DNA of 64,000 nucleotides from Escherichia coli (GTDB taxonomy: Bacteria; Pseudomonadota; Gammaproteobacteria; Enterobacterales; Enterobacteriaceae): assembly GCF_036507355.1 (NCBI RefSeq), contig NZ_AP027877.1, one strand, 5' to 3'. Position numbers and translations under genes: made by a program. Shown here piece after piece: positions 511 to 18,582 of the stretch; the stretch's first letter is position 1, and the number at the start of each line of letters is the position of its first letter. Under the pieces are notes generated by a model, which had not been told where the DNA came from, did no database searches, and saw only the letters and a list, made by a program, of their open reading frames with translations.

Positions 511-1674
511 GTGGAACAGATTAATTCAAATAAAAAACATTCTAACAGAAGAAAATACTTTTCTTTATTGGCGGTAGTTTTATTTATTGCGTTTTCAGGT
601 GCCTATGCCTATTGGTCAATGGAATTAGAAGACATGATTAGTACAGATGACGCCTATGTCACGGGGAATGCAGATCCAATTTCTGCACAAGTCTCAGGTA
701 GTGTCACTGTAGTTAATCATAAAGATACGAACTACGTTCGACAGGGTGACATTTTAGTTTCACTGGATAAAACTGATGCCACTATCGCACTCAATAAAGC
801 TAAAAATAATCTGGCAAATATTGTTCGGCAAACGAATAAACTATACTTACAGGATAAACAATACAGTGCCGAAGTCGCTTCAGCACGTATTCAGTATCAA
901 CAATCTTTAGAAGATTATAACCGTCGTGTGCCTTTAGCGAAGCAGGGGGTTATTTCAAAAGAAACGCTGGAGCATACCAAAGATACGTTAATAAGTAGCA
1001 AAGCGGCATTGAATGCCGCTATCCAGGCTTATAAAGCGAATAAAGCTTTAGTAATGAACACACCATTAAACCGTCAGCCACAAGTCGTTGAAGCTGCGGA
1101 TGCAACCAAAGAAGCCTGGTTGGCGCTTAAACGTACGGATATTAAGAGTCCGGTTACCGGCTATATTGCCCAGAGAAGTGTTCAGGTCGGCGAAACAGTG
1201 AGCCCCGGACAATCGTTAATGGCTGTCGTACCGGCACGTCAAATGTGGGTTAATGCCAACTTTAAAGAAACACAACTCACGGATGTACGGATTGGTCAAT
1301 CGGTCAATATTATCAGCGATCTTTATGGTGAGAATGTTGTGTTTCATGGCCGGGTGACAGGGATCAATATGGGAACCGGCAATGCGTTCTCCTTATTACC
1401 TGCACAAAATGCGACAGGGAACTGGATCAAAATCGTTCAGCGTGTACCGGTTGAAGTTTCTCTTGATCCAAAAGAACTCATGGAACACCCCTTGCGCATT
1501 GGTTTATCGATGACTGCAACTATTGATACGAAGGACGAAGACATTGCTGAGATGCCTGATCTGGCTTCAACCGTGACCTCCATGCCTGCTTATACCAGTA
1601 AGGCTTTAGTTATCGATACCAGTCCGATAGAAAAAGAAATTAGCAACATTATTTCGCATAATGGACAACTTTAA
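511..1674 (+). CDS. emrK: Multidrug efflux membrane fusion protein EmrK
   Basis: 387-aa ORF with GTG start, HlyD-family periplasmic adaptor sequence; stop overlaps emrY start (ATGG... at 1674). Confidence 0.9.
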   Translation: MEQINSNKKHSNRRKYFSLLAVVLFIAFSGAYAYWSMELEDMISTDDAYVTGNADPISAQVSGSVTVVNHKDTNYVRQGDILVSLDKTDATIALNKAKNNLANIVRQTNKLYLQDKQYSAEVASARIQYQQSLEDYNRRVPLAKQGVISKETLEHTKDTLISSKAALNAAIQAYKANKALVMNTPLNRQPQVVEAADATKEAWLALKRTDIKSPVTGYIAQRSVQVGETVSPGQSLMAVVPARQMWVNANFKETQLTDVRIGQSVNIISDLYGENVVFHGRVTGINMGTGNAFSLLPAQNATGNWIKIVQRVPVEVSLDPKELMEHPLRIGLSMTATIDTKDEDIAEMPDLASTVTSMPAYTSKALVIDTSPIEKEISNIISHNGQL

Positions 1675-3212
1675 TGGCAATCACTAAATCAACTCCGGCA
1701 CCATTAACCGGTGGGACGTTATGGTGCGTCACTATTGCATTGTCATTAGCGACGTTTATGCAAATGTTGGATTCCACTATTTCTAACGTCGCAATACCGA
1801 CAATATCTGGCTTTCTGGGAGCATCAACAGACGAAGGTACCTGGGTTATCACTTCGTTTGGCGTAGCAAATGCCATTGCGATCCCTGTTACCGGCAGGCT
1901 GGCACAAAGAATAGGCGAATTAAGGTTATTTTTACTTTCAGTCACTTTTTTTTCGCTGTCTTCCTTAATGTGTAGTTTATCGACCAATCTTGATGTGCTG
2001 ATATTTTTTAGAGTCGTTCAGGGGTTAATGGCGGGGCCGTTAATTCCACTGTCACAGAGTTTATTATTAAGGAATTATCCACCAGAAAAAAGGACATTTG
2101 CTCTGGCATTATGGTCAATGACCGTGATTATCGCTCCGATATGTGGGCCGATATTGGGCGGCTATATTTGTGATAACTTTAGCTGGGGTTGGATATTTTT
2201 AATCAATGTCCCTATGGGGATTATCGTCCTGACATTATGCTTAACCTTACTTAAAGGAAGAGAAACTGAGACTTCACCGGTCAAAATGAATCTACCAGGA
2301 CTGACCCTGTTAGTGCTCGGTGTTGGTGGCTTGCAAATTATGCTTGATAAAGGGCGCGATCTGGATTGGTTCAACTCGAGTACAATAATAATATTAACAG
2401 TAGTATCAGTTATTTCTCTGATCTCTTTAGTCATTTGGGAGTCGACCTCAGAGAACCCGATTCTTGATCTCAGTTTGTTTAAGTCCCGTAATTTCACCAT
2501 TGGTATTGTGAGTATCACATGCGCGTATTTATTTTACTCTGGAGCGATCGTCCTTATGCCGCAGTTATTCCAGGAAACGATGGGGTATAATGCGATATGG
2601 GCCGGACTTGCTTATGCGCCCATCGGCATCATGCCACTATTAATTTCACCTTTGATAGGACGTTATGGCAACAAAATAGACATGCGGTTGTTAGTGACAT
2701 TTAGTTTTTTGATGTATGCGGTTTGCTATTACTGGCGTTCTGTGACATTTATGCCAACGATTGATTTTACAGGTATCATTTTGCCGCAGTTTTTTCAGGG
2801 ATTCGCCGTTGCCTGTTTCTTTTTACCCTTAACAACGATTTCGTTTTCAGGCTTGCCAGATAATAAATTTGCCAATGCCTCGAGTATGAGTAATTTTTTT
2901 CGTACCTTGTCAGGATCAGTTGGTACATCGTTGACAATGACGCTGTGGGGGCGACGCGAATCGTTACACCATAGTCAGTTGACAGCAACCATCGATCAAT
3001 TTAACCCTGTATTTAATTCATCGTCACAAATTATGGATAAATACTATGGTTCGCTTTCAGGAGTTCTTAATGAAATTAATAATGAAATAACCCAGCAGTC
3101 ACTTTCTATTTCTGCAAATGAGATTTTCCGTATGGCGGCTATTGCTTTTATCTTACTTACGGTTTTGGTTTGGTTTGCGAAACCGCCGTTTACAGCGAAA
3201 GGCGTTGGGTGA
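1674..3212 (+). CDS. emrY: MFS multidrug efflux pump EmrY
   Basis: 512-aa ORF, multi-TM MFS (DHA2-like) protein, translationally coupled to emrK. Confidence 0.9.
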   Translation: MAITKSTPAPLTGGTLWCVTIALSLATFMQMLDSTISNVAIPTISGFLGASTDEGTWVITSFGVANAIAIPVTGRLAQRIGELRLFLLSVTFFSLSSLMCSLSTNLDVLIFFRVVQGLMAGPLIPLSQSLLLRNYPPEKRTFALALWSMTVIIAPICGPILGGYICDNFSWGWIFLINVPMGIIVLTLCLTLLKGRETETSPVKMNLPGLTLLVLGVGGLQIMLDKGRDLDWFNSSTIIILTVVSVISLISLVIWESTSENPILDLSLFKSRNFTIGIVSITCAYLFYSGAIVLMPQLFQETMGYNAIWAGLAYAPIGIMPLLISPLIGRYGNKIDMRLLVTFSFLMYAVCYYWRSVTFMPTIDFTGIILPQFFQGFAVACFFLPLTTISFSGLPDNKFANASSMSNFFRTLSGSVGTSLTMTLWGRRESLHHSQLTATIDQFNPVFNSSSQIMDKYYGSLSGVLNEINNEITQQSLSISANEIFRMAAIAFILLTVLVWFAKPPFTAKGVG

Positions 3213-4145: not shown

Positions 4146-4409
4146 TTGAATAATAGAGGCTATATGACAACGAAAATAAGCAAAGATGATAAACATCTGC
4201 TTGATCCTTATTTAAAATGGCTTGCAAACAAGAAGCTAATGGTTGCCTTCTGGTTGGTGCTAATGATATGTGGTTGCATATATGCATATATAGAAAATGA
4301 TTGGTCACTTCTTCCCCGATTCGGATGTTTAGGCATAATGATTGGCACATTGCTTACTCTTTCTCCGCTTTTTGCAGAAGGTATCTACCTATCAAGGCGA
4401 GAAGCATGA
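4146..4409 (+). CDS. Hypothetical small membrane protein (87 aa, two predicted TM helices); stop codon supplied by the IS end
   Basis: ORF with hydrophobic segments LMVAFWLVLMICGCIYAYI and GCLGIMIGTLLTLSPLF; TGA at 4407-4409 is the first 3 nt of the IS, so the native 3' end may be lost. Confidence 0.35.
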   Translation: MNNRGYMTTKISKDDKHLLDPYLKWLANKKLMVAFWLVLMICGCIYAYIENDWSLLPRFGCLGIMIGTLLTLSPLFAEGIYLSRREA

Positions 4410-4424
4410 ATCGCCACGGATAAT

Positions 4425-5237
4425 CTAGACACTTCCGAGCCGTTGATAATACTGGTTTTCATATTCTGTCGGTGACATCTGATCGCTGGAACCATGCCGA
4501 CGCTTACTGTTATAAAACATTTCGATGTAATCAAAAATATCGCTGCGGGCTTCTTCCCGCGTTCCGTAGATCTTTTTCTTTATCCGTTCGCGTTTCAACA
4601 ACTGGAAAAAGCTTTCTGCAACCGCATTATCATGGCAGTTACCGCGACGGCTCATGCTGCCATCCAGGCCGTGTGATTTCAGGAACGACTGCCACTCATG
4701 GCTTGTGTACTGACTGCCCTGATCCGAATGAACCAGCACCTGTTTTTGGGGATTACGGCGCCATACAGCCATCAGCAGTGCGTTCAGGACAATGTCCTTT
4801 GTCATCCGGGATTGCATGGACCAGCCGATAATTTTGCGTGAGAACAGATCAACAACCACGGCAAGATACAGCCAGCCTTCGTGGGTCCTGATGTAGGTTA
4901 TGTCCGTTACCCAACGCTTATCCGGAGCATCCGGATTGAACTGTCGCTGGAGCCTGTTGGGCGACACGATACTGGCCTCGCCTTTACGTGCCCGCGGGCT
5001 CCGGTATCCGACCTGAGCCTTTATCCCGACACGTTTCATCAGTCGCCAGACTCTGTTCACTCCGCACTGTTGCCCGCTGTCCCGCAGATCCAGATGGATT
5101 TTGCGATAACCATAGACGCATCCCGATTCCAGCCAGAACTGTTTAATCTGCCCTGTCAGCCTCAGGTCTGCCTGATGGCGTTGTGAATGCGGCTGCTGAA
5201 GCCAGGCGTAAAAACCACTGGGATGAACATCCAGCAC
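4425..5237 (-). CDS. IS3-family transposase OrfB (DDE integrase domain); expressed as OrfAB fusion by -1 frameshift
   Basis: 270-aa ORF from first Met; motifs DITYIRTHEGWLYLAVVVDLFSRKIIGW and HSDQGSQYTS; frame stays open upstream of the Met. Confidence 0.8.
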   Translation of the reverse strand: MLDVHPSGFYAWLQQPHSQRHQADLRLTGQIKQFWLESGCVYGYRKIHLDLRDSGQQCGVNRVWRLMKRVGIKAQVGYRSPRARKGEASIVSPNRLQRQFNPDAPDKRWVTDITYIRTHEGWLYLAVVVDLFSRKIIGWSMQSRMTKDIVLNALLMAVWRRNPQKQVLVHSDQGSQYTSHEWQSFLKSHGLDGSMSRRGNCHDNAVAESFFQLLKRERIKKKIYGTREEARSDIFDYIEMFYNSKRRHGSSDQMSPTEYENQYYQRLGSV

Positions 5238-5293
5238 CCGACAGAGCAGGCGAACAGGCCAGCAACAGGTGTTGTCACGGATAAAGGCGTACC

Positions 5294-5578
5294 TCAGTCG
5301 GACAGCTTTGCGAAGTACGCCGCGGCTTTTTTTAATATGTCCCGTTCGTCGGTAACCCGCTTCAGCTCTTTCTGGAGACGGCGGATCTCGGCCTGAGCAT
5401 CTGACTGTTCTTTATTAGCGGAAGAATCCGGACCGTACTTCTTTATCCAGGCGTAAAGGCTGTGGGTGGTGATATCGAGACGTGTTGCAACGCTGGCAAC
5501 AGAATAACCGCGATCAACAACCTGTTTGACTGCTTCAATTTTAAACTCTTCGGGATAACGCTTACCGCTCATGGGCAC
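5294..5578 (-). CDS. IS3-family transposase OrfA (HTH plus leucine zipper)
   Basis: 94-aa ORF MPMSGKRYPEEFKIEAVKQV...; ends near an A7G slippery run. Confidence 0.8.
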   Translation of the reverse strand: MPMSGKRYPEEFKIEAVKQVVDRGYSVASVATRLDITTHSLYAWIKKYGPDSSANKEQSDAQAEIRRLQKELKRVTDERDILKKAAAYFAKLSD

Positions 5579-5635
5579 CTCTCTTTAAGCCATCTTAAAT
5601 GACTCTGAGGTGTCTGTTAAACCCGTGGCGATTCA

Positions 5636-7626: not shown

Positions 7627-7696
7627 AGTCAGAGATAACAATCAACTAATACTGTTTTGTTGATTTTTGCTTGTAATTGGCGTTCTGGTCTGATTT

Positions 7697-8089
7697 TTGT
7701 GGAGTAAGTTGATGCGTGATATTCAGATGGTTCTTGAGCGTTGGGGAGCGTGGGCGGCTAATAATCATGAAGATGTGACCTGGTCGTCCATTGCCGCCGG
7801 TTTTAAGGGATTAATTCCTTCAAAAGTAAAATCTCGCCCACAATGTTGTGACGATGACGCGATGATCATTTGCGGGTGCATGGCCCGTCTGAAAAAGAAC
7901 AACAGCGATTTGCATGATTTATTGGTGGACTATTATGTCGGCGGCATGACTTTTATGGCGCTTGCACGTAAGCATGGGCGATCTGATTGTTGGGTTGGCA
8001 GGATGCTCCAGAAAGCTGAGGGCGTAGTGGAGGGTATGCTGATGGTGTTGGATCTCCGATTGGAGATGGATGCTGATTGTTCGAAATAA
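7697..8089 (+). CDS. Late-gene antitermination protein Q (QuuD / phage-82-type)
   Basis: 130-aa ORF (true start may be Met at 7712); Cys-rich zinc-binding region [16 protein letters not shown]; followed by terminator tR'. Confidence 0.8.
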
Positions 8090-8187
8090 TTAAAGGAAAA
8101 GTTGCTGTCTGATTGTCATTAGTCTAACATTTTAAATGTTGGAATCGCAACGTAGTTATTATCATATAACAGCTTGTTTCCTGATTT
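8090..8187 (+). promoter_or_regulatory. Probable late promoter pR' / qut region
   Basis: Position immediately 3' of Q and 5' of a strong terminator, as in lambdoid late control regions; promoter hexamers not confidently assigned. Confidence 0.3.
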
Positions 8188-8217
8188 AGCCAGCCTCCCC
8201 AAAGGCTGGTTTTTTTC
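8188..8217 (+). terminator. Rho-independent terminator (tR'-like)
   Basis: AGCCAGCCT-CCCCAA-AGGCTGGT hairpin followed by TTTTTTT. Confidence 0.55.
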
Positions 8218-8244
8218 TAATAAGTATTATTTCGGGTAGGGATT

Positions 8245-8769
8245 TTATTGTTTAACCCATAATAATTCATTGACATTGAATCCCAACTTTTGAGCGGTTC
8301 GCACATAGTCTGCTTTTACTTTATCTGGAATAGTTGGGGTCCTTGCCAGAATCCATAGGTATTCTCTGTTCGGACCACTGACAAGAGCATACTTATACTC
8401 ATCATCCAGTTTGATTACATTATAGCCACCATAGAAGGGGCCAAAAAACGAAACCTTCAATGCTGCAGTTTTAGTATCTCCAGTAAAGTATGCTTTACCT
8501 TCGCTCTCGCTCCATTTATTTTTCGTTGGATCGTATCCACGGTTAAGTACACGAATCCCTCCGTCGTTCCGTTTTCCATAAGTAGCGCTGACCTGTTCCA
8601 GATCACGTTCGAACCGGTTCTCGAGGCGAGCTATTTCATACCATTTTCCGAGGTAGCGGTTGGCGTCAAAATTTGTAATCGGCTGCACACCTTTAGGTGG
8701 TGTCGGGGCCTTACATGCTATAAGAGTGAAAGAGAGTGCAATGCCAGTCAACACAGGCCATAACTTCAT
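8245..8769 (-). CDS. Outer-membrane lipocalin, Blc homologue (lipoprotein)
   Basis: 174 aa; lipobox LIAC; NFDANRYLGKWYEIARLENRFERDLEQV...KVSFFGPFYGGYNVI closely parallels E. coli Blc; opposite strand to phage late genes. Confidence 0.85.
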   Translation of the reverse strand: MKLWPVLTGIALSFTLIACKAPTPPKGVQPITNFDANRYLGKWYEIARLENRFERDLEQVSATYGKRNDGGIRVLNRGYDPTKNKWSESEGKAYFTGDTKTAALKVSFFGPFYGGYNVIKLDDEYKYALVSGPNREYLWILARTPTIPDKVKADYVRTAQKLGFNVNELLWVKQ

Positions 8770-8961
8770 AATAAATCCTGTACTTTTGATAGTTGAGAGT
8801 AAGTATGAAAGATAGATGATTACGACCGATCACTTAAAGAACTTTCATACTATATTAGGAATAGTCCATAACAGAAAAATTGTCAGTGATGACGCCAGAA
8901 AGGCAATTTATTCCGTGCACTACACAGTTTATGTGTTAATGAATTAGTCAAGGGGGAGAAT

Positions 8962-9921
8962 ATGATAAAAAAACCTGTGATTGGAATCAGCGGTTGTTTG
9001 GCCGGTTCTGCTGTTCGTTTTGATGGTGGTCACAAAAGAGCTGACTTTTTAATGGACAAATTAGTGGAATGGGTAACATTCAGACCAGTATGTCCGGAAA
9101 TGGCTATAGGGCTGCCAGTTCCGCGTCCTGCTCTACGTCTTGTGCGCTCGACGCAAGGAAATATACGGATGTGTTTCAGCCACGACCAGAATGAGGATGT
9201 GACAGAGAGAATGACAGAGTTTAGTCGTTCTTATATGGACAAATTAAAGGATGTATCGGGGTTTGTGGTTTGTGCTAAATCTCCCAGCTGTGGCATGGAG
9301 CGCGTGCGTGTCTATGATGAAAATGGTAATCGAGGTCGTAAAGATGGAGTGGGACTATTTACGAGTACTTTGATGGAAAAGTTTTCCTGGCTACCGGTTG
9401 AAGAGGATGGGCGATTACATGATCCAGTGCTTCGTGAGAATTTTGTTGAAAGAGTTTTTGCTTTGCATGAGCTCAATCACCTTTACAAGGAGAAATTATC
9501 AAGAAGAGAGTTATTAGCTTTTCATAGTCGTTATAAGCTTCAGTTGTTGGCGCATAGTCAGGCAGGCTATAAAGATATGGGACCATTTGTGGCTGCAATA
9601 CACGAGTGGGCGGACCTTGAATCATACTTTGAGGTGTATCGTGATAAGCTGATGGCGATTCTCAGAAAACCTGCATCACGTAAAAATCACACGAATGTGC
9701 TGATGCATATACAGGGGTATTTTAGTAACTACTTAAGTACACGCCAGCGTAAAGAGTTGAGCGAGGTTATACTTAACTATCGTTCTGGCACATTACCTCT
9801 TCTTGCGCCGTTGACTCTGCTGAAGCATTATCTGGGTGAGTATCCTAATGATTACTTGCTTACACAGAATTACTTCGATCCCTATCCGGACGAACTGGCT
9901 CTAAGACTGATGGTAAATTAA
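8962..9921 (+). CDS. DUF523 (TudS-like thiouracil desulfidase, Fe-S) fused to DUF1722 (YbgA-like) protein
   Basis: 319 aa; N-terminal GISGCLAGSAVRFDGG, PVCPEMAIGLPVPR and SPSCGMERV cysteine motifs typical of DUF523; C-terminal LRENFVERVFALHEL...YKLQLLAHSQAGY typical of DUF1722. Confidence 0.55.
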   Translation: MIKKPVIGISGCLAGSAVRFDGGHKRADFLMDKLVEWVTFRPVCPEMAIGLPVPRPALRLVRSTQGNIRMCFSHDQNEDVTERMTEFSRSYMDKLKDVSGFVVCAKSPSCGMERVRVYDENGNRGRKDGVGLFTSTLMEKFSWLPVEEDGRLHDPVLRENFVERVFALHELNHLYKEKLSRRELLAFHSRYKLQLLAHSQAGYKDMGPFVAAIHEWADLESYFEVYRDKLMAILRKPASRKNHTNVLMHIQGYFSNYLSTRQRKELSEVILNYRSGTLPLLAPLTLLKHYLGEYPNDYLLTQNYFDPYPDELALRLMVN

Positions 9922-10263
9922 TTGTATGCGATATCATCCAAAAGGATGAGTTCCTGCATGCAGGATATTTACAATCGTAAAAACTACACTATGATACCCA
10001 GAGTGTCAGTTTGTATAAAAACTCTGTTTACGCTGAAGAAACAATTGAGATGCAACTTAAAGTTGGTAAACATGCCAGTCAAAATATATAATATTATGAT
10101 TCCACGCAGCTATATATAATATAACAGATTGGTTTAATAATTTGTCTTTGTGAGTTAAATACATAATTTTATACTTGTGATGCAATGAAATTTTCCTTAT
10201 TGTTGAACTGGCGAATATTGATTTTCCACCTATACTTACCTGGTGTAACCCCAATGATATCAG

Positions 10264-11004
10264 GTGGATAATATGCCATACATATGTTCTATCATTTTGG
10301 TGTTGAACTCGTTTGATGTCCGAATTGGTAAAGAAGATATTTTGTTTAAAAAAGGAAGTGCTGTTCTCATTGATTACAATTTAAAAGATTTTTTTTCATC
10401 AAATATAGATCATGTAATGATCGTAGATGTTGAAGAGAAAACAGTTAATGATTTCTTTAAAAGCAACACACTCTCACCTTTTTCTGTAAGAAGGTTTTAT
10501 CCGGCATACTTGATGGTGGAATGTGAAGATTTTTCATTGTTAAAGAACTTGATTGCATGCTTGAATTGTGATGGCAGAACTGTGGATTTTGTTAGAAATC
10601 AAATATCACTTGCATGTCTTGCTATCTTATCTTCAGAGAAAATAGTGCAAAGTTTTTTATTTGGATGTCTTAATAGTTTAGGAAGTAAAGTTAAGGCTAT
10701 TATTCACACGGATATATCTGCAGCATGGAGACTTTGTGATATATCTTCAAGACTGTATCTGAGTGAAAGTCTGTTAAAAAGAAAATTAAAGCACGAAGGC
10801 TTATCATTTAGTAAGTTAATTCTTGAAGAGCGAATGGTGATGGCGGAAAGGTTATTAAGCTACAATTTATATTCTGTTGGAAAAGTTGCTGAGATATGCG
10901 GTTATGAAAACACGTCATATTTTGTGAGTGTTTTCAGAAGATATTTTGGTGTTCCTCCCCATCAATATTCATCAAGATTTTTTTTAGAAAAAGACATGAT
11001 GTAA
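10264..11004 (+). CDS. AraC-family transcriptional regulator, AppY/EnvY-like
   Basis: 246 aa; C-terminal double HTH (WRLCDISSRLYLSESLLKRKLK...VGKVAEICGYENTSYFVSVFRRYFGVPP); very AT-rich gene and upstream region. Confidence 0.8.
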   Translation: MDNMPYICSIILVLNSFDVRIGKEDILFKKGSAVLIDYNLKDFFSSNIDHVMIVDVEEKTVNDFFKSNTLSPFSVRRFYPAYLMVECEDFSLLKNLIACLNCDGRTVDFVRNQISLACLAILSSEKIVQSFLFGCLNSLGSKVKAIIHTDISAAWRLCDISSRLYLSESLLKRKLKHEGLSFSKLILEERMVMAERLLSYNLYSVGKVAEICGYENTSYFVSVFRRYFGVPPHQYSSRFFLEKDMM

Positions 11005-11065
11005 CATGATGCGTTTTAATGATTTTGTAATTTTCGTATTTGATAATTGTATGATGCTTTCAGCT

Positions 11066-11097
11066 ACGCCAGAATAATCGCTGGCGTTTTTCTTTTT
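11066..11097 (+). terminator. Rho-independent terminator after the AraC-like gene
   Basis: ACGCCAG-AATAATCG-CTGGCGT hairpin followed by TTTTTCTTTTT. Confidence 0.4.
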
Positions 11098-11192
11098 GAA
11101 TAGATGTTCAAGCCTTACGCTAATGTAACTTCTATACCTTTCCTCTTCGTTCCGAACCGTGTACACCATCCGTTATTTGCGGAGGTGAGGCT

Positions 11193-11408
11193 ATGAAATC
11201 TATGGATAAGTTAACAACGGGCATTGCCTACGGCACCTCCGCAGGCAGTGCTGGCTACTGGTTTTTACAGTTGCTCGATAAAGTCACGCCCTCACAGTGG
11301 GCAGCAATAGGTGTGCTGGGTAGCCTGGTATTTGGCCTGCTGACGTACCTGACAAACCTTTATTTCAAGATTAAAGAAGATAAGCGCAAGGCTGCGAGAG
11401 GTGAATAA
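11193..11408 (+). CDS. Class II holin (phage-21 S21-type pinholin)
   Basis: 71 aa, [26 protein letters not shown]..., two TM segments, matches recalled S21/EssD. Confidence 0.85.
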
Positions 11409-11905
11409 TGCCTCCATCATTACGAAAAGCCGTTGCTGCTGCTATTGGTGGCGGAGCAATTGCTATAGCATCAGTGTTAATCACTGGCCCAAGTGGTAAC
11501 GATGGTCTGGAAGGTGTCAGCTACATACCATACAAAGATATTGTTGGTGTATGGACTGTATGTCACGGGCATACAGGAAAAGACATCATGCTCGGTAAAA
11601 CGTATACCAAAGCAGAATGCAAAGCCCTCCTGAATAAAGACCTTGCCACGGTCGCCAGACAAATTAACCCGTACATAAAAGTTGATATACCGGAAACAAC
11701 GCGCGGCGCTCTTTACTTGTTCGTTTACAACGTGGGCGCTGGCAATTTCAGAACATCGACGCTTCTTCGCAAAATAAACCAGGGCGATATCAAAGGCGCA
11801 TGTGATCAGCTACGTCGCTGGACATATGCTGGCGGTAAGCAATGGAAAGGGCTGATGACTCGCCGTGAGATTGAGCGTGAAGTCTGTTTGTGGGGGCAAC
11901 AATGA
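11408..11905 (+). CDS. SAR endolysin (phage-21 R-type lysozyme)
   Basis: 165 aa; N-terminal Gly/Ala-rich signal-anchor-release segment [18 protein letters not shown]; lysozyme catalytic region. Confidence 0.88.
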
Positions 11906-12345
11906 GTAGAGTAACCGCGATTATCTCCGCTCTGGTTATCAGCATCATCGTCTGCCTGTCATGGGCTGTTAATCATTACCGTGATAACGCCATGACCTAC
12001 AAAGAACAGCGCGACAAAGCCACATCCATCATCGCTGACATGCAGAAGCGTCAACATGATGTAGCAGAACTCGACGCCAGATACACAAAGGAGCTTGCTG
12101 ATGCTAACGCGACTATCGAAAGTCTTCGTGCTGATGTTTCTGCTGGTCGTAAGTGGCTGCACGTCAAAGCAGTCTGTCCGGACAAGCATAAAACCACCGC
12201 CGCCTCCGGCGTGGATGATGCTTCCAGCCCCAGACTTACTGACACCGCTCAACGGGATTATTTCGTTCTCAGAGAGCGCATCGAAACCATAACTAACCAA
12301 TTGAATGGCCTGCAAGAATATGTGAGATCACAGTGTTCATATTAG
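11902..12345 (+). CDS. i-spanin Rz
   Basis: N-terminal TM helix then coiled-coil periplasmic domain; overlaps endolysin stop. Confidence 0.8.
12101..12292 (+). CDS. o-spanin Rz1 (lipoprotein) embedded in +1 frame of Rz
   Basis: Lipobox LVVSGC followed by Pro-rich stretch KPPPPPAW; entirely inside Rz. Confidence 0.65.
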
Positions 12346-12758
12346 AAAAGTCTTATCATAAGATTTTTGTATATGGATGCATTATGTCTCAATACGCTCA
12401 CGTTGCTTTAATCGCTTATCATTTGGTGGCTGATAGCTCAATGACTCCTCGTGATGCATGGGATGCAGCTATCGCAGAGGTTACAGAAAGCGAATCGTCA
12501 AGAAAGAAGATATGCCCAAGGGCAACATTTCTCGCCCTGGCGGATAGCGGTTACCTGAAGAATGTAAAACCACTGCATGGGGAGAAAAAGGGCGGTAAGT
12601 TGTACCAAAGGGCAATTGAAGTTGCGAATCTGATTCTTGATTTACCCGGAATCAGTAAAGCTGAATTGGTTGATAAAACTGGTTACAAAGACAGGCAAGG
12701 GTCTTATGACCTGATTCTCGCTCTGTATCATCATGAGCAACTCCAGCGATCGGAATAA
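12333..12758 (+). CDS. YbcV-like hypothetical phage protein
   Basis: 141-aa ORF (start possibly Met at 12386) at the position of ybcV in DLP12; no recognisable motif. Confidence 0.4.
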
Positions 12759-12875
12759 TTATCCCAGCATCAGTGTCAAAAATAGGCAGTGATACGCTAT
12801 TTTCCTGAAAATACTTTACTAACATTTTATGAGAATTATCCTAGTAATGTGTTTATTTAAAAGGAGTTTGGGTTT

Positions 12876-13079
12876 ATGAAAATTCTCTGGGTCATCAGTC
12901 TTTTGTGTAGTGCTATTGGATTTATTGAAGGAATCCTCGGGGTTTTCGGTGCTCAGAGTGCTCCACAACAGGCTGCAGGTGCAGCAATGGGAGTAGCATG
13001 GGCAGTTATTCCATATTGTATTTGTCGTGCTATCCAACAATTGCGCCCTCGAGAAGTCATTATTAAAAAGGAAGAATGA
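12876..13079 (+). CDS. YbcW-like small membrane protein (67 aa)
   Basis: ORF with RBS-like GGAG upstream; two hydrophobic segments. Confidence 0.4.
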   Translation: MKILWVISLLCSAIGFIEGILGVFGAQSAPQQAAGAAMGVAWAVIPYCICRAIQQLRPREVIIKKEE

Positions 13080-13144
13080 CCAGATCTTATCCGGTGTTTT
13101 TTCTGTCTAAGCCTCGCGTCGCGGGGCTTTTTATTGGAGCCAGC

Positions 13145-13495
13145 ATGCCACCACGAACACCAAAAGCCTGCCGTGTTCGCGGCTGCCGCCATACCACAAC
13201 TGACCCGTCAGGCTATTGCGAAAGCCACAAAAGTGAAGGCTGGAAGCAATACAAGCCGGGCCAGTCCAGACACCAGCGCGGTTATGGTTCGAAATGGGAT
13301 GTTATCCGTGAACGTGTGCTCAAGCGTGACAAAGGACTGTGTCAGTTATGTCTGCGTGGTGGTGTGGTACGTGAGGCGAAAACCGTTGACCACATCATCC
13401 CTAAAGCGCATGGCGGCACTGATGCCGACAGCAATCTGCAGAGCCTGTGCTGGCCGTGTCATAAGGCGAAGACGGCCCGTGAACGGTTGAAGTAA
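13145..13495 (+). CDS. HNH endonuclease (packaging-associated)
   Basis: CxxC...DHIIPKAHGGTDADSNLQSLCWPCH HNH motif; directly upstream of terminase genes; start taken at MPPRTPKA. Confidence 0.8.
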   Translation: MPPRTPKACRVRGCRHTTTDPSGYCESHKSEGWKQYKPGQSRHQRGYGSKWDVIRERVLKRDKGLCQLCLRGGVVREAKTVDHIIPKAHGGTDADSNLQSLCWPCHKAKTARERLK

Positions 13496-13611
13496 GAACC
13501 AGTTCCCACTGCCAGAGGGGAGGGGCGGGTCAAATCCCTGTGACCTGACGTCTTCCGGACTGCCCGCCCCATCGTTTTTTTATACCCGCGAAAAATGAAA
13601 TTTAACCAGGA

Positions 13612-14115
13612 GTGCCGCATATGGCTGGAACGGCGGGGCGTTCCGGGCGTCGCCCCAAGCCAACGGCGCGCAAGGCGCTGGCCGGAAACCCCGGCAAGCG
13701 AGCCCTGAATAAAGATGAACCTGTTTTTACGCCCATCAAAGGTGTTGAGCCACCGGAGTGGTTCGCTGAAGAAGATCTCCCTCTCGCCACGATCATGTGG
13801 CAACTGACAACCAAAGAACTCTGCGGTCAGGGCCTGCTGTGCGTGACTGACCTGGCGGTACTTGAGCGGTGGTGTGTGGCCTATGAGTTCTGGCGACGTG
13901 CCGTGAAAAATATTGCCAGACAGGGCAACACCATCACCGGTGCAATGGGCGGTATGGTCAAAAATCCTGAGCTGACCGCCAAAAAAGAACAGGAGTCCGA
14001 GATGAGCAGTACGGGGGCAATGCTCGGACTCGACCCCAGCAGCCGCCAGCGTCTGATTGGCCTGGCGGGGCAGAAGAAAGCCACTAACCCGTTTCTGAAA
14101 ATTATCGAATCATGA
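13612..14115 (+). CDS. Terminase small subunit (P27 family)
   Basis: 167-aa ORF preceding and overlapping terL; terminase small-subunit-like sequence. Confidence 0.7.
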
Positions 14116-15845
14116 GCCGGAAATCTTACCCCAACGTAAATGCTGCCAATCAGTATGCCCGGGATGTCGTTCGCGGAAAGATTGTGGCCTGCCAGTTTGT
14201 GATTCAGGCCTGCCAGCGCCATCTTGATGACCTGATGGCGGAAAAAAGTAAGTCGTTTCGTTACCGCTTCGACAAGGACCTGGCTGAACGGGCCGCCAAA
14301 TTTATTCAGCTGTTGCCGCATACCAAGGGTGAGTGGGCATTCAAACGGATGCCCATCACGCTGGAGCCGTGGCAGCTCTTTGTGATCTGCTGTGCGTTTG
14401 GCTGGGTCAATAAAGGTACCCGGCTGCGCCGCTTCCGGGAGGTGTATACCGAAATCCCCCGTAAGAACGGCAAATCGGCAATCTCTGCCGGTGTTGCCCT
14501 GTATTGTTTTGCCTGTGATAACGAGTTTGGCGCGGAAGTGTATTCCGGTGCCACGACAGAGAAACAGGCGTGGGAAGTCTTTCGCCCGGCGCGACTGATG
14601 TGTAAACGCACACCCATGCTGACGGAAGCGTTCGGGATTGAGGTTAACGCCTCAAACATGAACCGTCCGGAGGATGGCGCGCGGTTTGAACCGCTGATCG
14701 GTAACCCCGGTGATGGTTCATCACCCCACTGTGCTGTGGTGGATGAATATCACGAGCATGCCACAGATGCACTTTACACCACGATGCTTACCGGGATGGG
14801 CGCGCGACGTCAGCCACTGATGTGGGCCATTACTACTGCCGGGTACAACATTGAGGGGCCGTGCTACGACAAGCGGCGGGAAGTCATCGAGATGCTCAAC
14901 GGCTCGGTGCCCAACGATGAACTGTTCGGGATCATCTATACCGTTGATGAAGGTGACGACTGGACCGACCCGCAGGTGCTGGAAAAAGCCAATCCAAATA
15001 TTGGCGTGTCGGTTTATCGCGAATTTTTGTTAAGTCAGCAGCAGCGTGCGAAAAATAACGCCCGTCTGGCAAACGTCTTTAAAACAAAACACCTCAATAT
15101 CTGGGTGTCGGCGCGTTCGGCGTATTTCAACCTGGTGAGCTGGCAGAGCTGCGAGGATAAATCACTGACCCTTGAGCAGTTCGAGGGGCAGCCGTGCATT
15201 CTGGCCTTTGACCTGGCGCGCAAGCTGGATATGAACAGCATGGCGCGACTTTATACCCGCGAGATTGACGGTAAAACGCATTACTACAGTGTGGCCCCGC
15301 GTTTCTGGGTACCGTATGACACGGTGTACAGCGTCGAGAAAAATGAAGATCGCCGGACAGCCGAACGCTTTCAGAAATGGGTGGAAATGGGCGTTCTGAC
15401 CGTTACCGATGGTGCGGAGGTGGATTATCGCTACATCCTCGAGGAGGCCAAAGCGGCGAACAAAATCAGCCCGGTCAGTGAGTCACCCATCGACCCCTTC
15501 GGGGCGACCGGGTTGTCACATGACCTTGCTGATGAAGACCTGAACCCCATCACTATCATTCAGAACTACACCAACATGTCCGACCCGATGAAAGAGCTGG
15601 AAGCGGCAATTGAATCGGGGCGCTTTCATCATGATGGCAATCCCATCATGACCTGGTGTATCGGCAACGTGGTCGGCAAAACCATTCCGGGTAACGATGA
15701 TGTGGTGAAGCCCGTCAAAGAGCAGGCGGAAAACAAAATCGATGGTGCAGTTGCGCTGATTATGGCGGTTGGCAGAGCCATGCTGTACGAGAAAGAAGAC
15801 ACGCTGTCTGACCACATTGAGTCCTATGGGATCCGCTCGCTTTAA
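14112..15845 (+). CDS. Terminase large subunit
   Basis: 577 aa; ATPase and nuclease regions typical of TerL. Confidence 0.9.
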
Positions 15846-15856
15846 CTGAGGTAATT

Positions 15857-16039
15857 ATGATCATGCTGATTCTCGCGCCTCTGGTGGGCGTGCTGGGGGC
15901 GCTTTTGCTGGCGTATGGTGCCTGGCTGATTTATCCCCCGGCGGGGTTTGTTGTTGCCGGGGCGTTGTGCCTGTTCTGGTCGTGGCTGGTGGCGCGATAT
16001 CTCGACCGTACACAGTCGTCTGTCGGCGGAGGTAAATAG
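15857..16039 (+). CDS. Small hydrophobic phage protein (60 aa)
   Basis: ORF between terL and portal, mostly hydrophobic. Confidence 0.3.
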
Positions 16040-17280
16040 TGTTCTTTTCGGGATTATTTCAACGAAAAAGTGACGCACCGGTGACCACGCCAGCAGAGCT
16101 GGCGGATGCTATCGGGTTGTCCTACGACACCTATACCGGAAAGCAGATCAGCAGCCAGCGGGCCATGCGACTGACGGCGGTTTTTTCCTGTGTCAGGGTG
16201 CTGGCGGAGTCGGTCGGGATGTTGCCCTGCAACCTGTATCACCTGAACGGCAGCCTGAAGCAGAGAGCCACTGGCGAACGTCTGCATAAGCTGATCTCCA
16301 CGCATCCCAATGGCTATATGACGCCGCAGGAGTTCTGGGAGCTGGTGGTCACCTGTCTGTGCCTGCGGGGAAACTTTTACGCCTACAAAGTGAAAGCATT
16401 TGGCGAAGTGGCTGAACTGCTGCCCGTCGATCCCGGCTGTGTGGTACCGAAGCTTAACAGTAGCTGGGAGCCGATCTATCAGGTCACATTCCCGGATGGC
16501 TCCACGGATGTACTGAGCCAGGAGGATATCTGGCATGTGCGCACGCTGACGCTGGACGGACTGGTGGGGCTGAATCCCATCGCCTATGCCCGCGAGGCAA
16601 TATCGCTGGCAGCTGCGACCGAAGAGCACGGGGCCAGACTGTTCAGCAATGGCGCGGTGACGTCGGGTGTGTTGCGTACAGAGCAGACGCTGTCAGATCA
16701 GGCTTATGAGCGCCTGAAGAAAGATTTTGAGGAGCGTCACACCGGGCTTGGCAATGCTCACCGCCCGATGATCCTTGAGATGGGGCTGGACTGGAAGTCG
16801 ATGGCGCTGAACGCCGAGGACAGCCAGTTCCTGGAAACCCGCAAGTTTCAGCTTGAAGAAATCTGTCGTCTGTTCCGGGTGCCGTTGCACATGGTGCAGA
16901 ACACCGATCGCGCCACCTTCAACAATATCGAAGAGCTGGGGCTGGGATTTATCAACTATTCACTGGTGCCGTATCTGACCCGCATCGAACAGCGGATCAA
17001 CACCGGACTGGTACGAAAAAGTAAGCAGGGCGTTTATTACGCCAAATTTAACGCCGGGGCGTTACTGCGCGGGGATATGAAGTCCCGTTTTGAAGCCTAC
17101 GCCACCGGGATCAACTGGGGAATTTACTCTCCCAATGACTGCCGCGACCTGGAAGATATGAATCCGCGTCCCGGTGGTGATGTCTATCTCACACCGATGA
17201 ACATGACCACGAAACCCTCCGATGGCAGTAAGGCCGGTAAGCAGAAGGATAACGCCAATGCAGACGAAACAACGTCTTGA
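16039..17280 (+). CDS. Portal protein (HK97 family)
   Basis: 413 aa, position after terL, portal-like sequence. Confidence 0.85.
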   Translation: MFFSGLFQRKSDAPVTTPAELADAIGLSYDTYTGKQISSQRAMRLTAVFSCVRVLAESVGMLPCNLYHLNGSLKQRATGERLHKLISTHPNGYMTPQEFWELVVTCLCLRGNFYAYKVKAFGEVAELLPVDPGCVVPKLNSSWEPIYQVTFPDGSTDVLSQEDIWHVRTLTLDGLVGLNPIAYAREAISLAAATEEHGARLFSNGAVTSGVLRTEQTLSDQAYERLKKDFEERHTGLGNAHRPMILEMGLDWKSMALNAEDSQFLETRKFQLEEICRLFRVPLHMVQNTDRATFNNIEELGLGFINYSLVPYLTRIEQRINTGLVRKSKQGVYYAKFNAGALLRGDMKSRFEAYATGINWGIYSPNDCRDLEDMNPRPGGDVYLTPMNMTTKPSDGSKAGKQKDNANADETTS

Positions 17281-17908
17281 TGTACTGCTGAGTCTGAAAT
17301 CTGTCAGTGACTCCGGTGAGTTTGAAGGGTATGGCTCCGTCTTTGGTGTAAAGGACAGCCACGATGATGTGGTGATGTCCGGGGCATTTGCTGCTTCCCT
17401 GCGGGCGTGGAGTGACAGAAAAGCGTTACCTGCGCTGCTCTGGCAGCACCGCATGGATGAACCCATCGGTGTTTACACCGAAATGAAGGAAGACGATGTC
17501 GGGCTTTACGTCAGGGGACGGTTGCTTATTGATGATGATCCCCTCGCAAAACGCGCACATGCACACATGAAGGCCGGTTCGTTAACCGGCCTTTCTATTG
17601 GGTACGTCCTGAAAGACTGGGAATACGACCGGAGCAAAGAAGCCTTTCTGCTGAAAGAAATCGACCTCTGGGAAGTCAGCCTGGTGACGTTCCCGTCTAA
17701 CGACGAGGCGCGGATCAGCGACGTCAAGAACGCACTGGCCCGCGGGGAAATCCCCGAACAGAAAAAAATCGAAAGAGTCCTGCGTGATGTCGGACTCTCC
17801 CGTACCCAGGCCAAAGCATTCATGGCCGGGGGCTATGGCGCACTGTCCCTGCGCGACGCTGAGGATGTGGGCTCTGCACTGAATGCACTGAAAAATCTGA
17901 ACTTCTAA
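17258..17908 (+). CDS. Prohead protease (HK97 family)
   Basis: ORF following portal; start taken at MQTKQRLDVLL. Confidence 0.7.
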   Translation: MQTKQRLDVLLSLKSVSDSGEFEGYGSVFGVKDSHDDVVMSGAFAASLRAWSDRKALPALLWQHRMDEPIGVYTEMKEDDVGLYVRGRLLIDDDPLAKRAHAHMKAGSLTGLSIGYVLKDWEYDRSKEAFLLKEIDLWEVSLVTFPSNDEARISDVKNALARGEIPEQKKIERVLRDVGLSRTQAKAFMAGGYGALSLRDAEDVGSALNALKNLNF

Positions 17909-17922
17909 TCAGGAGAAATACG

Positions 17923-18582
17923 ATGGCGGTTGATATTAAAGATGTCGAACAGGTCGCGCAGGAGCTGCAGCAGAAGTTTGACGACTTCAAAGCAAAGAAC
18001 GACAAGCGCGTGGATGCGATTGAGCAGGAAAAAGGCAAGCTTGCCGGGCAGGTGGAAACCCTGAACGGGAAACTCAGCGAGCTGGAAAATCTCAAAAGCG
18101 ACCTTGAAAAAGAGCTGTTTGAGCTGAAACGTCCGGCAACGGCGTATGTCGAAAGCGGGGTGCTGCGCATTCAGCGTGATGTCACCACGTACAGGAAAAA
18201 TGCTTACGGGGTTGCGGATAACAGCTACCTCGACAGCGAGACGCTGCATACCAGTGCGTATGTACTGCGCAAACTGAAATCCGTCATTACCAGTAAGTAC
18301 GGGCGTCACAAGCTTGCCAGCGACGGTACCCGCTTTGGTCCCGGTCAGGCGATTGTCACCCCGGCGGTGATCAAAGGGGAACTGCTGGCAACCTACCGTC
18401 AGCTTGGGCGTGCGGGGATCGTGGAAAACTACGAACTGTTTAAGCAGTACCTGGTTGTGGAGCGTGATGCCAGCGATCCGAACCGCCTGAACACGCTGTT
18501 CCCGCCTGACTATGTTAACCAGTTGCGTGTCTTTGCCGTGGTTAACCAGTTCCGTCTTCAGTATTCAGAGGAGTCTGCATAA
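17923..18582 (+). CDS. Phage structural protein; N-terminal coiled-coil resembling the delta domain of an HK97-like major capsid protein but far too short (219 aa); probable deletion remnant
   Basis: N-terminus AQELQQKFDDFKAKNDKRVDAIEQEKGKLAGQVETLNGKL is delta-domain-like; a complete capsid gene would be about 400 codons. Confidence 0.35.
   Translation: MAVDIKDVEQVAQELQQKFDDFKAKNDKRVDAIEQEKGKLAGQVETLNGKLSELENLKSDLEKELFELKRPATAYVESGVLRIQRDVTTYRKNAYGVADNSYLDSETLHTSAYVLRKLKSVITSKYGRHKLASDGTRFGPGQAIVTPAVIKGELLATYRQLGRAGIVENYELFKQYLVVERDASDPNRLNTLFPPDYVNQLRVFAVVNQFRLQYSEESA

Follow-up and report, generated by a model that had tools for sequence, protein, structure and literature searches.

In E. 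coli, prophage-encoded AraC-family regulators such as PatE, PsrA, PsrB and AppY feed into the acid-resistance and virulence circuits of the cell. We describe here an unnamed member of this known family, encoded on the plus strand between positions 10,273 and 11,004 of a 64,000-nucleotide stretch of E. coli DNA (contig NZ_AP027877.1 of RefSeq assembly GCF_036507355.1; the whole stretch is hereafter referred to as the window). PatE (also named Z0321, and ECs_0287 in strain Sakai), encoded by the prophage CP-933H/Sp1 of enterohaemorrhagic E. coli (EHEC) O157:H7, activates gadE, gadBC and hdeAB (PMC10877973). The hdeA element from -132 to -45 is bound by both PatE and PsrB, and gadE and hdeAB are activated by PsrB as well as PatE (PMC10877973). 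PsrA and PsrB, the prophage-encoded secretion regulators of EHEC, are described as AraC/XylS regulators restricted to prophages, working via GadE and YhiF (PMC10877973). AppY, encoded by the DLP12 prophage of E. coli K-12, binds directly to gadE, gadY and slp, while its own expression depends on H-NS, ArcA and RpoS; gadE is also under the control of GadW, GadX and YdeO (PMC10057817). The initial annotation of this locus, made from the letters of the sequence, had stated that prophage AraC regulators rewire host stress genes, and for the characterized relatives PatE, PsrB and AppY this is indeed the case.

The regulator described here is a cousin of PatE, present in about one fifth of the complete E. 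coli genomes and so far uncharacterized, bearing a generic name only. The RefSeq product name is "helix-turn-helix domain-containing protein" in every record, the match in PHROGs is phrog_1450 of unknown function (E 3.5e-107), and a literature search with the RefSeq protein accessions and the gene cassette gave nothing relevant. The present analysis is of value because it adds to a known regulator family and corrects the annotation; no new kind of biology is involved.

Relationship to PatE and other AraC-family regulators

PatE was aligned with the regulator over 235 amino acid residues without a gap (53.6 % identity, E 2e-88). The identity was 72 % within residues 136-235, the DNA-binding domain, and 40 % within residues 1-135. 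The first recognition helix, SESLLKRKLK, is the same in both proteins, while the second reads TSYFVSVFRRYFG in the regulator and VSYFTYVFRRYFG in PatE, with three positions being different. The two proteins are colinear, prophage-borne and similar in length (247 residues for PatE and 243 for the regulator), and both start with an N-terminal MxxxCS(V/I)IL. On a neighbour-joining tree, the clade of the regulator (with the homologue clusters P0003, P0006 and P0013) is sister to the PatE clade, while AppY with GadW, YdeO, and GadX with EnvY branch further out. PatE thus differs in forming a separate clade, and also in gene location, the patE gene being at the prophage end beside a remnant of an IS3-family insertion sequence (IS) rather than between the genes for the late antiterminator Q and the holin.

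Based on these sequence comparisons, the regulator belongs to the enterobacterial PatE/Psr-GadW-AppY-YdeO group, beside PatE rather than AppY or EnvY. Of the features of the PatE/Psr group, homology to PatE along the whole protein, N-terminal domain included, and location on a phage or prophage were found; for the third, binding and activation of the hdeA (-132 to -45) and gadE promoters with raised acid survival, the observation made is the sequence conservation of the recognition helices. Proteins sharing the N-terminal domain are few, making up 10 clusters (at 50 % identity) at E 1e-30 among 1.84 billion representatives. The homologue cluster P0018 is taken to be an allele of PatE because it adjoins the pao/yag genes as patE does; the cluster P0017 is on a 1.5-kb contig without context.

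The identity to the regulator over the full length was 34 % for GadW, 32 % for AppY and 32 % for YdeO. GadX was 41 % identical along its C-terminal 101 residues only, and EnvY (29 %) and YbcM (22 %) gave partial alignments. Within the N-terminal domain the identity of EnvY and GadX was as low as 13-15 % (EnvY, 13 %), whereas the C-terminal identity of EnvY reached 41 %. The label "AppY/EnvY-like" first given to this gene was loosely right for AppY, with which the N-terminal domain is shared, and wrong for EnvY. The alignment then proposed as a check, against AppY, EnvY, GadX and Rns, gave a full-length match to AppY, but C-terminal matches to EnvY and GadX and a match to Rns within residues 109-236 only.

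Among the NCBIfam models, the best match was YdeO (NF007407, E 7e-37), but its score of 127.3 bits is far below the equivalog cut-off of 348, and with an identity of 32 % the orthology to YdeO was rejected. The GadX equivalog (NF007432) was also rejected, as its score was 85.5 bits against the cut-off of 500 and the match covered residues 103-238 only. AppY, clustering with GadW and 32 % identical, was rejected as an orthologue, and likewise the designation "EnvY-like", since EnvY clusters with GadX and has only the DNA-binding domain in common.

AppY resembles the regulator in its two-domain architecture with a shared N-terminal domain and in being encoded by AT-rich DNA of a prophage. Lysine 169 of the regulator, at least 90 % conserved in our alignment A1, corresponds to K170 of AppY, and the substitution K170E in AppY abolishes DNA binding (PMC10057817). 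AppY differs, however, in its clade and in the location of its gene, at the end of a prophage instead of the Q-to-holin slot. The hya and app operons are targets peculiar to AppY, and there is no basis for assigning them to the regulator. GadW and YdeO align with the regulator over the full length and GadX shares the C-terminal domain only; the genes for all three are chromosomal, in contrast to the phage-borne gene of the regulator.

The relationship to PsrA and PsrB is taken from the review (PMC10877973). Their genes show linkage to type III effector loci, which are absent near the regulator gene. No homologue was detected by tblastn in the Sakai Sp6 stretch (L004) or the EDL933 CP-933N stretch (L069, 1,625,001-1,675,000). 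Reviews place psrA (z1789) on OI-50/CP-933N, and no AraC-family homologue was annotated in these two stretches either.

Coding sequence and domain organization

The coding sequence and its parts are as follows.

10273..11004, plus strand: AraC/XylS-family regulator coding sequence, 243 codons plus stop (open reading frame list, RefSeq and homologue alignment)
10261..10266, plus strand: Shine-Dalgarno sequence AGGTGG, ending 6 nt ahead of the ATG at 10273 and kept in all three allele groups
10273..10677, plus strand: N-terminal regulatory/dimerization domain, residues 1-135, with a beta-rich core (strands within 3-54 and 79-82) followed by helices within 87-132 in the AlphaFold model
10678..10977, plus strand: C-terminal double helix-turn-helix (HTH) DNA-binding domain, residues 136-235, with recognition helices at about 164-174 and 214-225

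The open reading frame as listed (10264-11004, plus strand, 246 residues) opens at GTG. Translation starts almost certainly at the ATG at 10273, 9 nt further 3', because the GTG at 10264, which was rejected as the start, falls within the Shine-Dalgarno sequence, and both RefSeq and the homologues agree with the ATG. The identical RefSeq gene (WP_001146308.1) opens at this ATG (12574-13305 of L001, equivalent to 10273-11004 of the window), and the N-termini of all homologues read MPxICS or MATTCS. The open reading frame at 10264-11004 given in the initial annotation is therefore real and intact, except that its start is moved by 9 nt, leaving 243 residues.

The regulator carries the C-terminal domain of about 100 residues with two HTH motifs that is characteristic of the AraC/XylS family. 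Pfam HTH_18 was detected (E 2e-14, residues 161-237 in the 246-residue numbering), as was HTH_AraC on the second HTH (E 5e-7), the first HTH giving merely E 0.25. In the AlphaFold model (input, a 33-sequence alignment; predicted local distance difference test score 91.0, predicted template-modelling score 0.86), all seven helices of the DNA-binding domain are present. The modelled domain is superposed on the crystal structure of GadX with template-modelling (TM) scores of 0.89-0.93 and root-mean-square deviations of 1.0-1.3 A, and also on the DNA-binding domains of MarA and AraC. Both HTHs are therefore present in the predicted structure despite the weak Pfam score of the first, in agreement with the double HTH first proposed for this protein. 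A truncated copy lacking the second HTH, named at that time as the result that would overturn the proposal, is not what the window holds, because the alignment to PatE is gapless and a run of eight T residues within the gene (see below) is in frame.

By Foldseek, the best full-length matches were the virulence regulators Rns, CsvR and ToxT, whose full-length structures are solved (about 245 aligned columns, E 1e-11 to 1e-7), the regulator sharing the two-domain fold of the Rns/ToxT type, in which a beta-rich N-terminal domain is followed by the double HTH. The full-length TM scores were only 0.40-0.44, with an identity of 17-20 %, because the two domains differ in relative orientation. The targets of Rns, CsvR and ToxT are pilus and toxin genes. 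Regulators of the Rns/ToxT type respond to fatty acids, the ligand-pocket residues being H20 and R75 in Rns and K31 and K230 in ToxT.

Predicted targets and mode of expression

By analogy with the described relatives, we mildly favour the reading that the regulator is an intact two-domain AraC/XylS activator, carried as a moron between the Q and holin genes, which acts most likely on host acid-resistance promoters. The protein, when made, would use its two recognition helices to bind AT-rich sites upstream of host promoters, and these promoters would thereby be activated. The likeliest targets would be gadE and hdeAB within the acid fitness island, which serves glutamate-dependent acid resistance (AR2), and other regulons would be affected indirectly. 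AR2 is proposed because the DNA-binding domain is so close to that of PatE, with an identical first recognition helix, and because the characterized relatives (PatE, PsrB, AppY, GadW/GadX and YdeO) converge on the acid fitness island. If gadE and hdeAB are indeed driven by this protein, its gene would constitute a widespread but strain-variable input to acid survival, and inactivation by shortening of the T run from eight to seven would add a natural ON/OFF polymorphism.

The following sequence elements bear on expression of the regulator.

9922..10272, plus strand: AT-rich stretch separating ybgA from the regulator gene, a spacer and probable leader with 31.9 % guanine plus cytosine (GC)
9968..9995, plus strand: candidate sigma-70 promoter TTTACA-16-TATGAT, matching 10 of 12 consensus positions, the best of the scan
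11066..11087, plus strand: intrinsic-terminator-like hairpin of 7 pairs (5 G-C) with a T run, located past the regulator stop codon and before the holin gene

Transcription would start from the candidate promoter, pass along an AT-rich leader (about 275 nt) and end at the hairpin. In an intact phage, additional read-through by Q-antiterminated late transcription would be expected upon induction, while in a lysogen the expression would probably be low owing to H-NS-type silencing of DNA with 32 % GC, as reported for appY. The spacer is diverged and indel-rich among the alleles except for two islands, one being TTTACAATCGTAAAAACTnCnCTATGAT at 9968-9995, the sole conserved block of the distal spacer, and the other the last 50 nt or so with the Shine-Dalgarno sequence. 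The candidate promoter and terminator would fit a self-contained moron. Among the traits of a moron, the terminator, the foreign composition and the variable content between Q and holin genes were seen, the promoter being a conserved match to the consensus only. Rfam detected no known RNA in the spacer or near the regulator, its sole match being tRNA-Arg at 23783-23854.

The GC content of the regulator gene is 31.8 % (26.6 % at third codon positions), compared with 49.3 % for the whole window and 55 % for the adjoining phage late genes. The segment from 9922 to 11004 (1083 bp) ranks 7th lowest in GC among 1259 sliding windows. The marked AT-richness that had been noted for both the gene and its upstream region was thus borne out; being AT-rich relative to the genome is one of the traits expected of an H-NS-silenced, horizontally acquired gene. 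The upstream region, first put at about 340 bp, measures 342 nt up to the GTG and becomes 351 nt once the ATG is taken as the start. Other islands of low GC (33-35 %) are located within the window at 21196-22320, 26093-27373 and 34000-35300; the low-GC DNA includes an acyltransferase-family gene adjoining intS, an open reading frame of 277 codons without an NCBIfam match, and a stretch located upstream of the second of two IS copies, at about 34.7 kb.

Several observations weigh against the regulator being an expressed activator of acid resistance. The identity to PatE in the N-terminal domain is only 40 %. PsrA is left off the list of acid-resistance activators despite its 90 % identity to PsrB (PMC10877973), and therefore function is not safely carried over between paralogues. 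Promoter-like sites are not enriched in the region (13 found versus 12 expected from shuffled sequences), and the high-affinity H-NS motif TCGATAAATT, with up to 2 mismatches, gave no match within 9922-11004, compared with 1.28 per kb in the whole window; this last result is weak, and for silencing neither scan is decisive either way. About 40 % of the copies of the same allele (232/582) are frameshifted, and therefore the gene must be dispensable in many lineages. Finally, the early region of the prophage has been lost, so that read-through driven by Q is unlikely in this host.

Gene neighbourhood on the prophage

The regulator gene occupies the slot between the Q antiterminator gene and the lysis cassette of a lambdoid prophage of the KplE1/CPS-53 type, in which the following neighbours are located.

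7712..8089, plus strand: Q-family late antiterminator (RefSeq-type start, longest open reading frame from 7697; phrog_79)
8188..8211, plus strand: terminator-like hairpin just past Q, at the blc 3' end as well, a candidate tR' or bidirectional terminator
8245..8769, minus strand: Blc-type outer-membrane lipocalin gene, part of a conserved cargo module
8962..9921, plus strand: YbgA-family gene (DUF523/2-thiouracil-desulfurase (TudS)-like plus DUF1722), part of the conserved cargo module
11193..11408, plus strand: holin of the essD type, opening the lysis cassette
11408..11905, plus strand: lysozyme of the lysis cassette
11890..12345, plus strand: Rz of the lysis cassette

The module Q-blc-ybgA-regulator-holin was found again in 37 IMG/VR loci and in a Qin-like prophage, as well as in the isolated phage IdasGreatGrand (regulator 99.2 % identical) and in lambda-like phages (82.7 %). 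The gene is thus prophage-borne, as had been claimed, both by its Q-to-holin position in a prophage at argW and by its presence in isolated phages. PHROGs lists both blc and ybgA as being of unknown function (phrog_2809 and phrog_3275). Near the Q and lysis genes, the same position is occupied by the stx genes in Stx phages.

The constant company of blc and ybgA raises the alternative that the regulator is local to its cassette, the true targets being these two cargo genes and not host regulons. The linkage of Q, blc, ybgA and the regulator is indeed kept in all three allele groups in spite of the divergence of the regulator to 83-86 %, and it holds although the downstream lysis genes vary between the rrrD type and the rrrQ type. 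More distant homologues, however, lack the cargo. The gene of P0013 (65 % identity) follows Q directly without blc and ybgA, its contig stopping after the regulator; that of P0015 (56 %) is located between the Q and holin genes, again without blc and ybgA; and that of P0023 (49 %) is located directly before the holin gene, with no gene called in the 831 nt available upstream. The feature kept in the wider clade is adjacency to the Q and lysis genes, and the idea of blc/ybgA regulation is thereby weakened. In addition, PatE at its prophage end is accompanied by neither cargo gene, and the characterized relatives all act on host promoters. We therefore consider control of the cargo genes unlikely, and the activation of host acid-resistance promoters stays the preferred reading.

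Allele groups and purifying selection

Of 5,426 complete E. coli genomes, 1,081 carry the regulator gene with its spacer, 867 of them at a coverage of at least 80 %, and three allele groups stand apart, with at least 99 % identity (585 genomes), about 90 % (263 genomes) and about 85 % (225 genomes). Intact copies are also carried by plaque-forming phages. The ratio of nonsynonymous to synonymous substitution rates (dN/dS) among the three groups was 0.22-0.27 overall, 0.13-0.14 for the DNA-binding domain and 0.32-0.56 for the N-terminal domain. These values indicate that the gene encodes a functional protein under purifying selection. The synonymous rate (dS) itself is mosaic along the gene. 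When the window copy was compared with L013 and L002, it was 0.10 in the N-terminal domain and 0.70 in the DNA-binding domain against the 86 % allele, while the pattern was reversed, 0.42 versus 0.29, against the 83 % allele; this mosaic points to recombination within the regulator gene.

Frameshifts at a homopolymeric tract

One element within the coding sequence differs in length among copies.

10389..10396, plus strand: T8 homopolymer in codons 39-41, a frameshift hotspot, in frame in the window copy

For the allele of the window, exact matches to 88-nt and 87-nt probes were counted in 582 complete genomes, giving 239 with the exact T8 and 232 with the exact T7. Six T7 copies that were fetched are all marked "frameshifted" by the Prokaryotic Genome Annotation Pipeline (PGAP), as are L063 and L064, in which the tract is likewise frameshifted. 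Premature stops were found in four IMG/VR copies of the 99 % allele, three having T7 and one T6. In the 86 % and 83 % alleles the T run is interrupted (TCTTTTTT and TTTTCTTTT, respectively), and no frameshifts were found in the loci examined. The haplotype table of 30 copies supports well at least three separate backgrounds for T7/T6, possibly six; one is a clone-like haplotype (L024, L025 and L053-L056), a second comprises L057 and L058, and the frameshifted tract of L051 sits next to its T8 siblings L052 and L059. Further T7/T6 entries of the table are L063, L044 and L064, and L033 also belongs to the loci of this observation. The T8 tract is thus a site of recurrent loss of function, and the truncation that had been named as a refutation, while not found in the window copy, does occur in about 40 % of the copies of the same allele.

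These frameshifts suggest a different fate, in which the gene is a passenger without function that is turning into a pseudogene within a dead prophage, and the copy in the window has simply escaped so far. The window prophage is defective, the exact T7 tract is found in 232 of the 582 copies, the frameshifts are on several haplotypes, and some copies carry second indels. In agreement with this, the N-terminally truncated product of 195 residues, starting from M49, forms a cluster of 623 sequences in the protein database, versus 1131 for the full-length product. The window copy is, however, intact, dN/dS between the allele groups is 0.13-0.27, and both the promoter block and the ribosome-binding site are conserved. 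Moreover, the two other allele groups are without frameshifts in the loci examined, and the copies on plaque-forming phages are intact. Decay of a useless passenger is accordingly held to be as improbable as control of the cargo genes.

Rather doubtful, and rated slightly below the passenger, is the possibility that slipped-strand mutation or transcriptional slippage makes the T8 run a contingency switch, by which a prophage-borne acid-resistance/virulence regulator would be turned ON and OFF among E. coli lineages or subpopulations. As in phase-variable genes, a homopolymer in the 5' part of the coding sequence differs in length (T8, T7 and T6) on several haplotypes. Such a switch would explain the nearly equal numbers of T8 and T7 as well as the recurrence of frameshifts solely in the allele with an uninterrupted run. 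L063, L044 and L064 carry second homopolymer deletions, which could be errors of long-read assembly; the presence of extra indels in part of the T7 copies argues for decay more than for reversible switching.

A phage-serving role in tuning lysis or late-gene expression is very unlikely in spite of the Q-to-holin position conserved across the clade and the same orientation as the late operon, since the regulator gene is separated from the holin gene by a terminator of its own, is missing from most lambdoid phages (present in 33/50,697 phage records), and is foreign in composition to the phage backbone (32 % versus 48-55 % GC), as is typical of morons; a lysis regulator of the AraC family is not known in this group.

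State of the prophage and its chromosomal surroundings

The prophage of the window is a defective remnant, which refines its initial description. The window is colinear with an intact relative, NZ_AP022261, from 7669 to 18138, after which about 4.2 kb is missing (at 18135-18140), the gap reaching from within the major capsid gene as far as the tail sheath gene, and more tail genes are also lost. An IS3-family element of 1230 bp at 4406-5635 has taken the place of the early region, which would carry the repressor and replication genes, and an inverted copy of this element with 99.8 % identity is located 30 kb away at 35440-36669. The segment between the two copies comprises the prophage, argW and the neighbouring core genes as far as about 35.4 kb, and the copies could mediate its inversion.

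The tRNA-Arg(CCT) gene argW is located at 23780-23854 and an IntS-type integrase gene at 22461-23654. The prophage is flanked by yfdC and mlaA beyond argW, and by emrK and emrY at the opposite end (511-3212). In E. coli K-12, emrKY is adjoined by evgAS, at the head of the EvgAS-YdeO-GadE acid-resistance cascade. The PatE/YdeO-like regulator is located within about 10 kb of the emrKY locus, probably just reflecting the position of the argW attachment site.

The core genes within 40001-64000 of the window (purF, folC, fabB, mnmC, yfcJ and others) showed at most 98.3 % identity at full coverage among the 5,426 genomes, and one record only reached 99 % or more. Together with the IS copies, these identities suggest an Escherichia lineage that is under-sampled, or else a Shigella-like genome.

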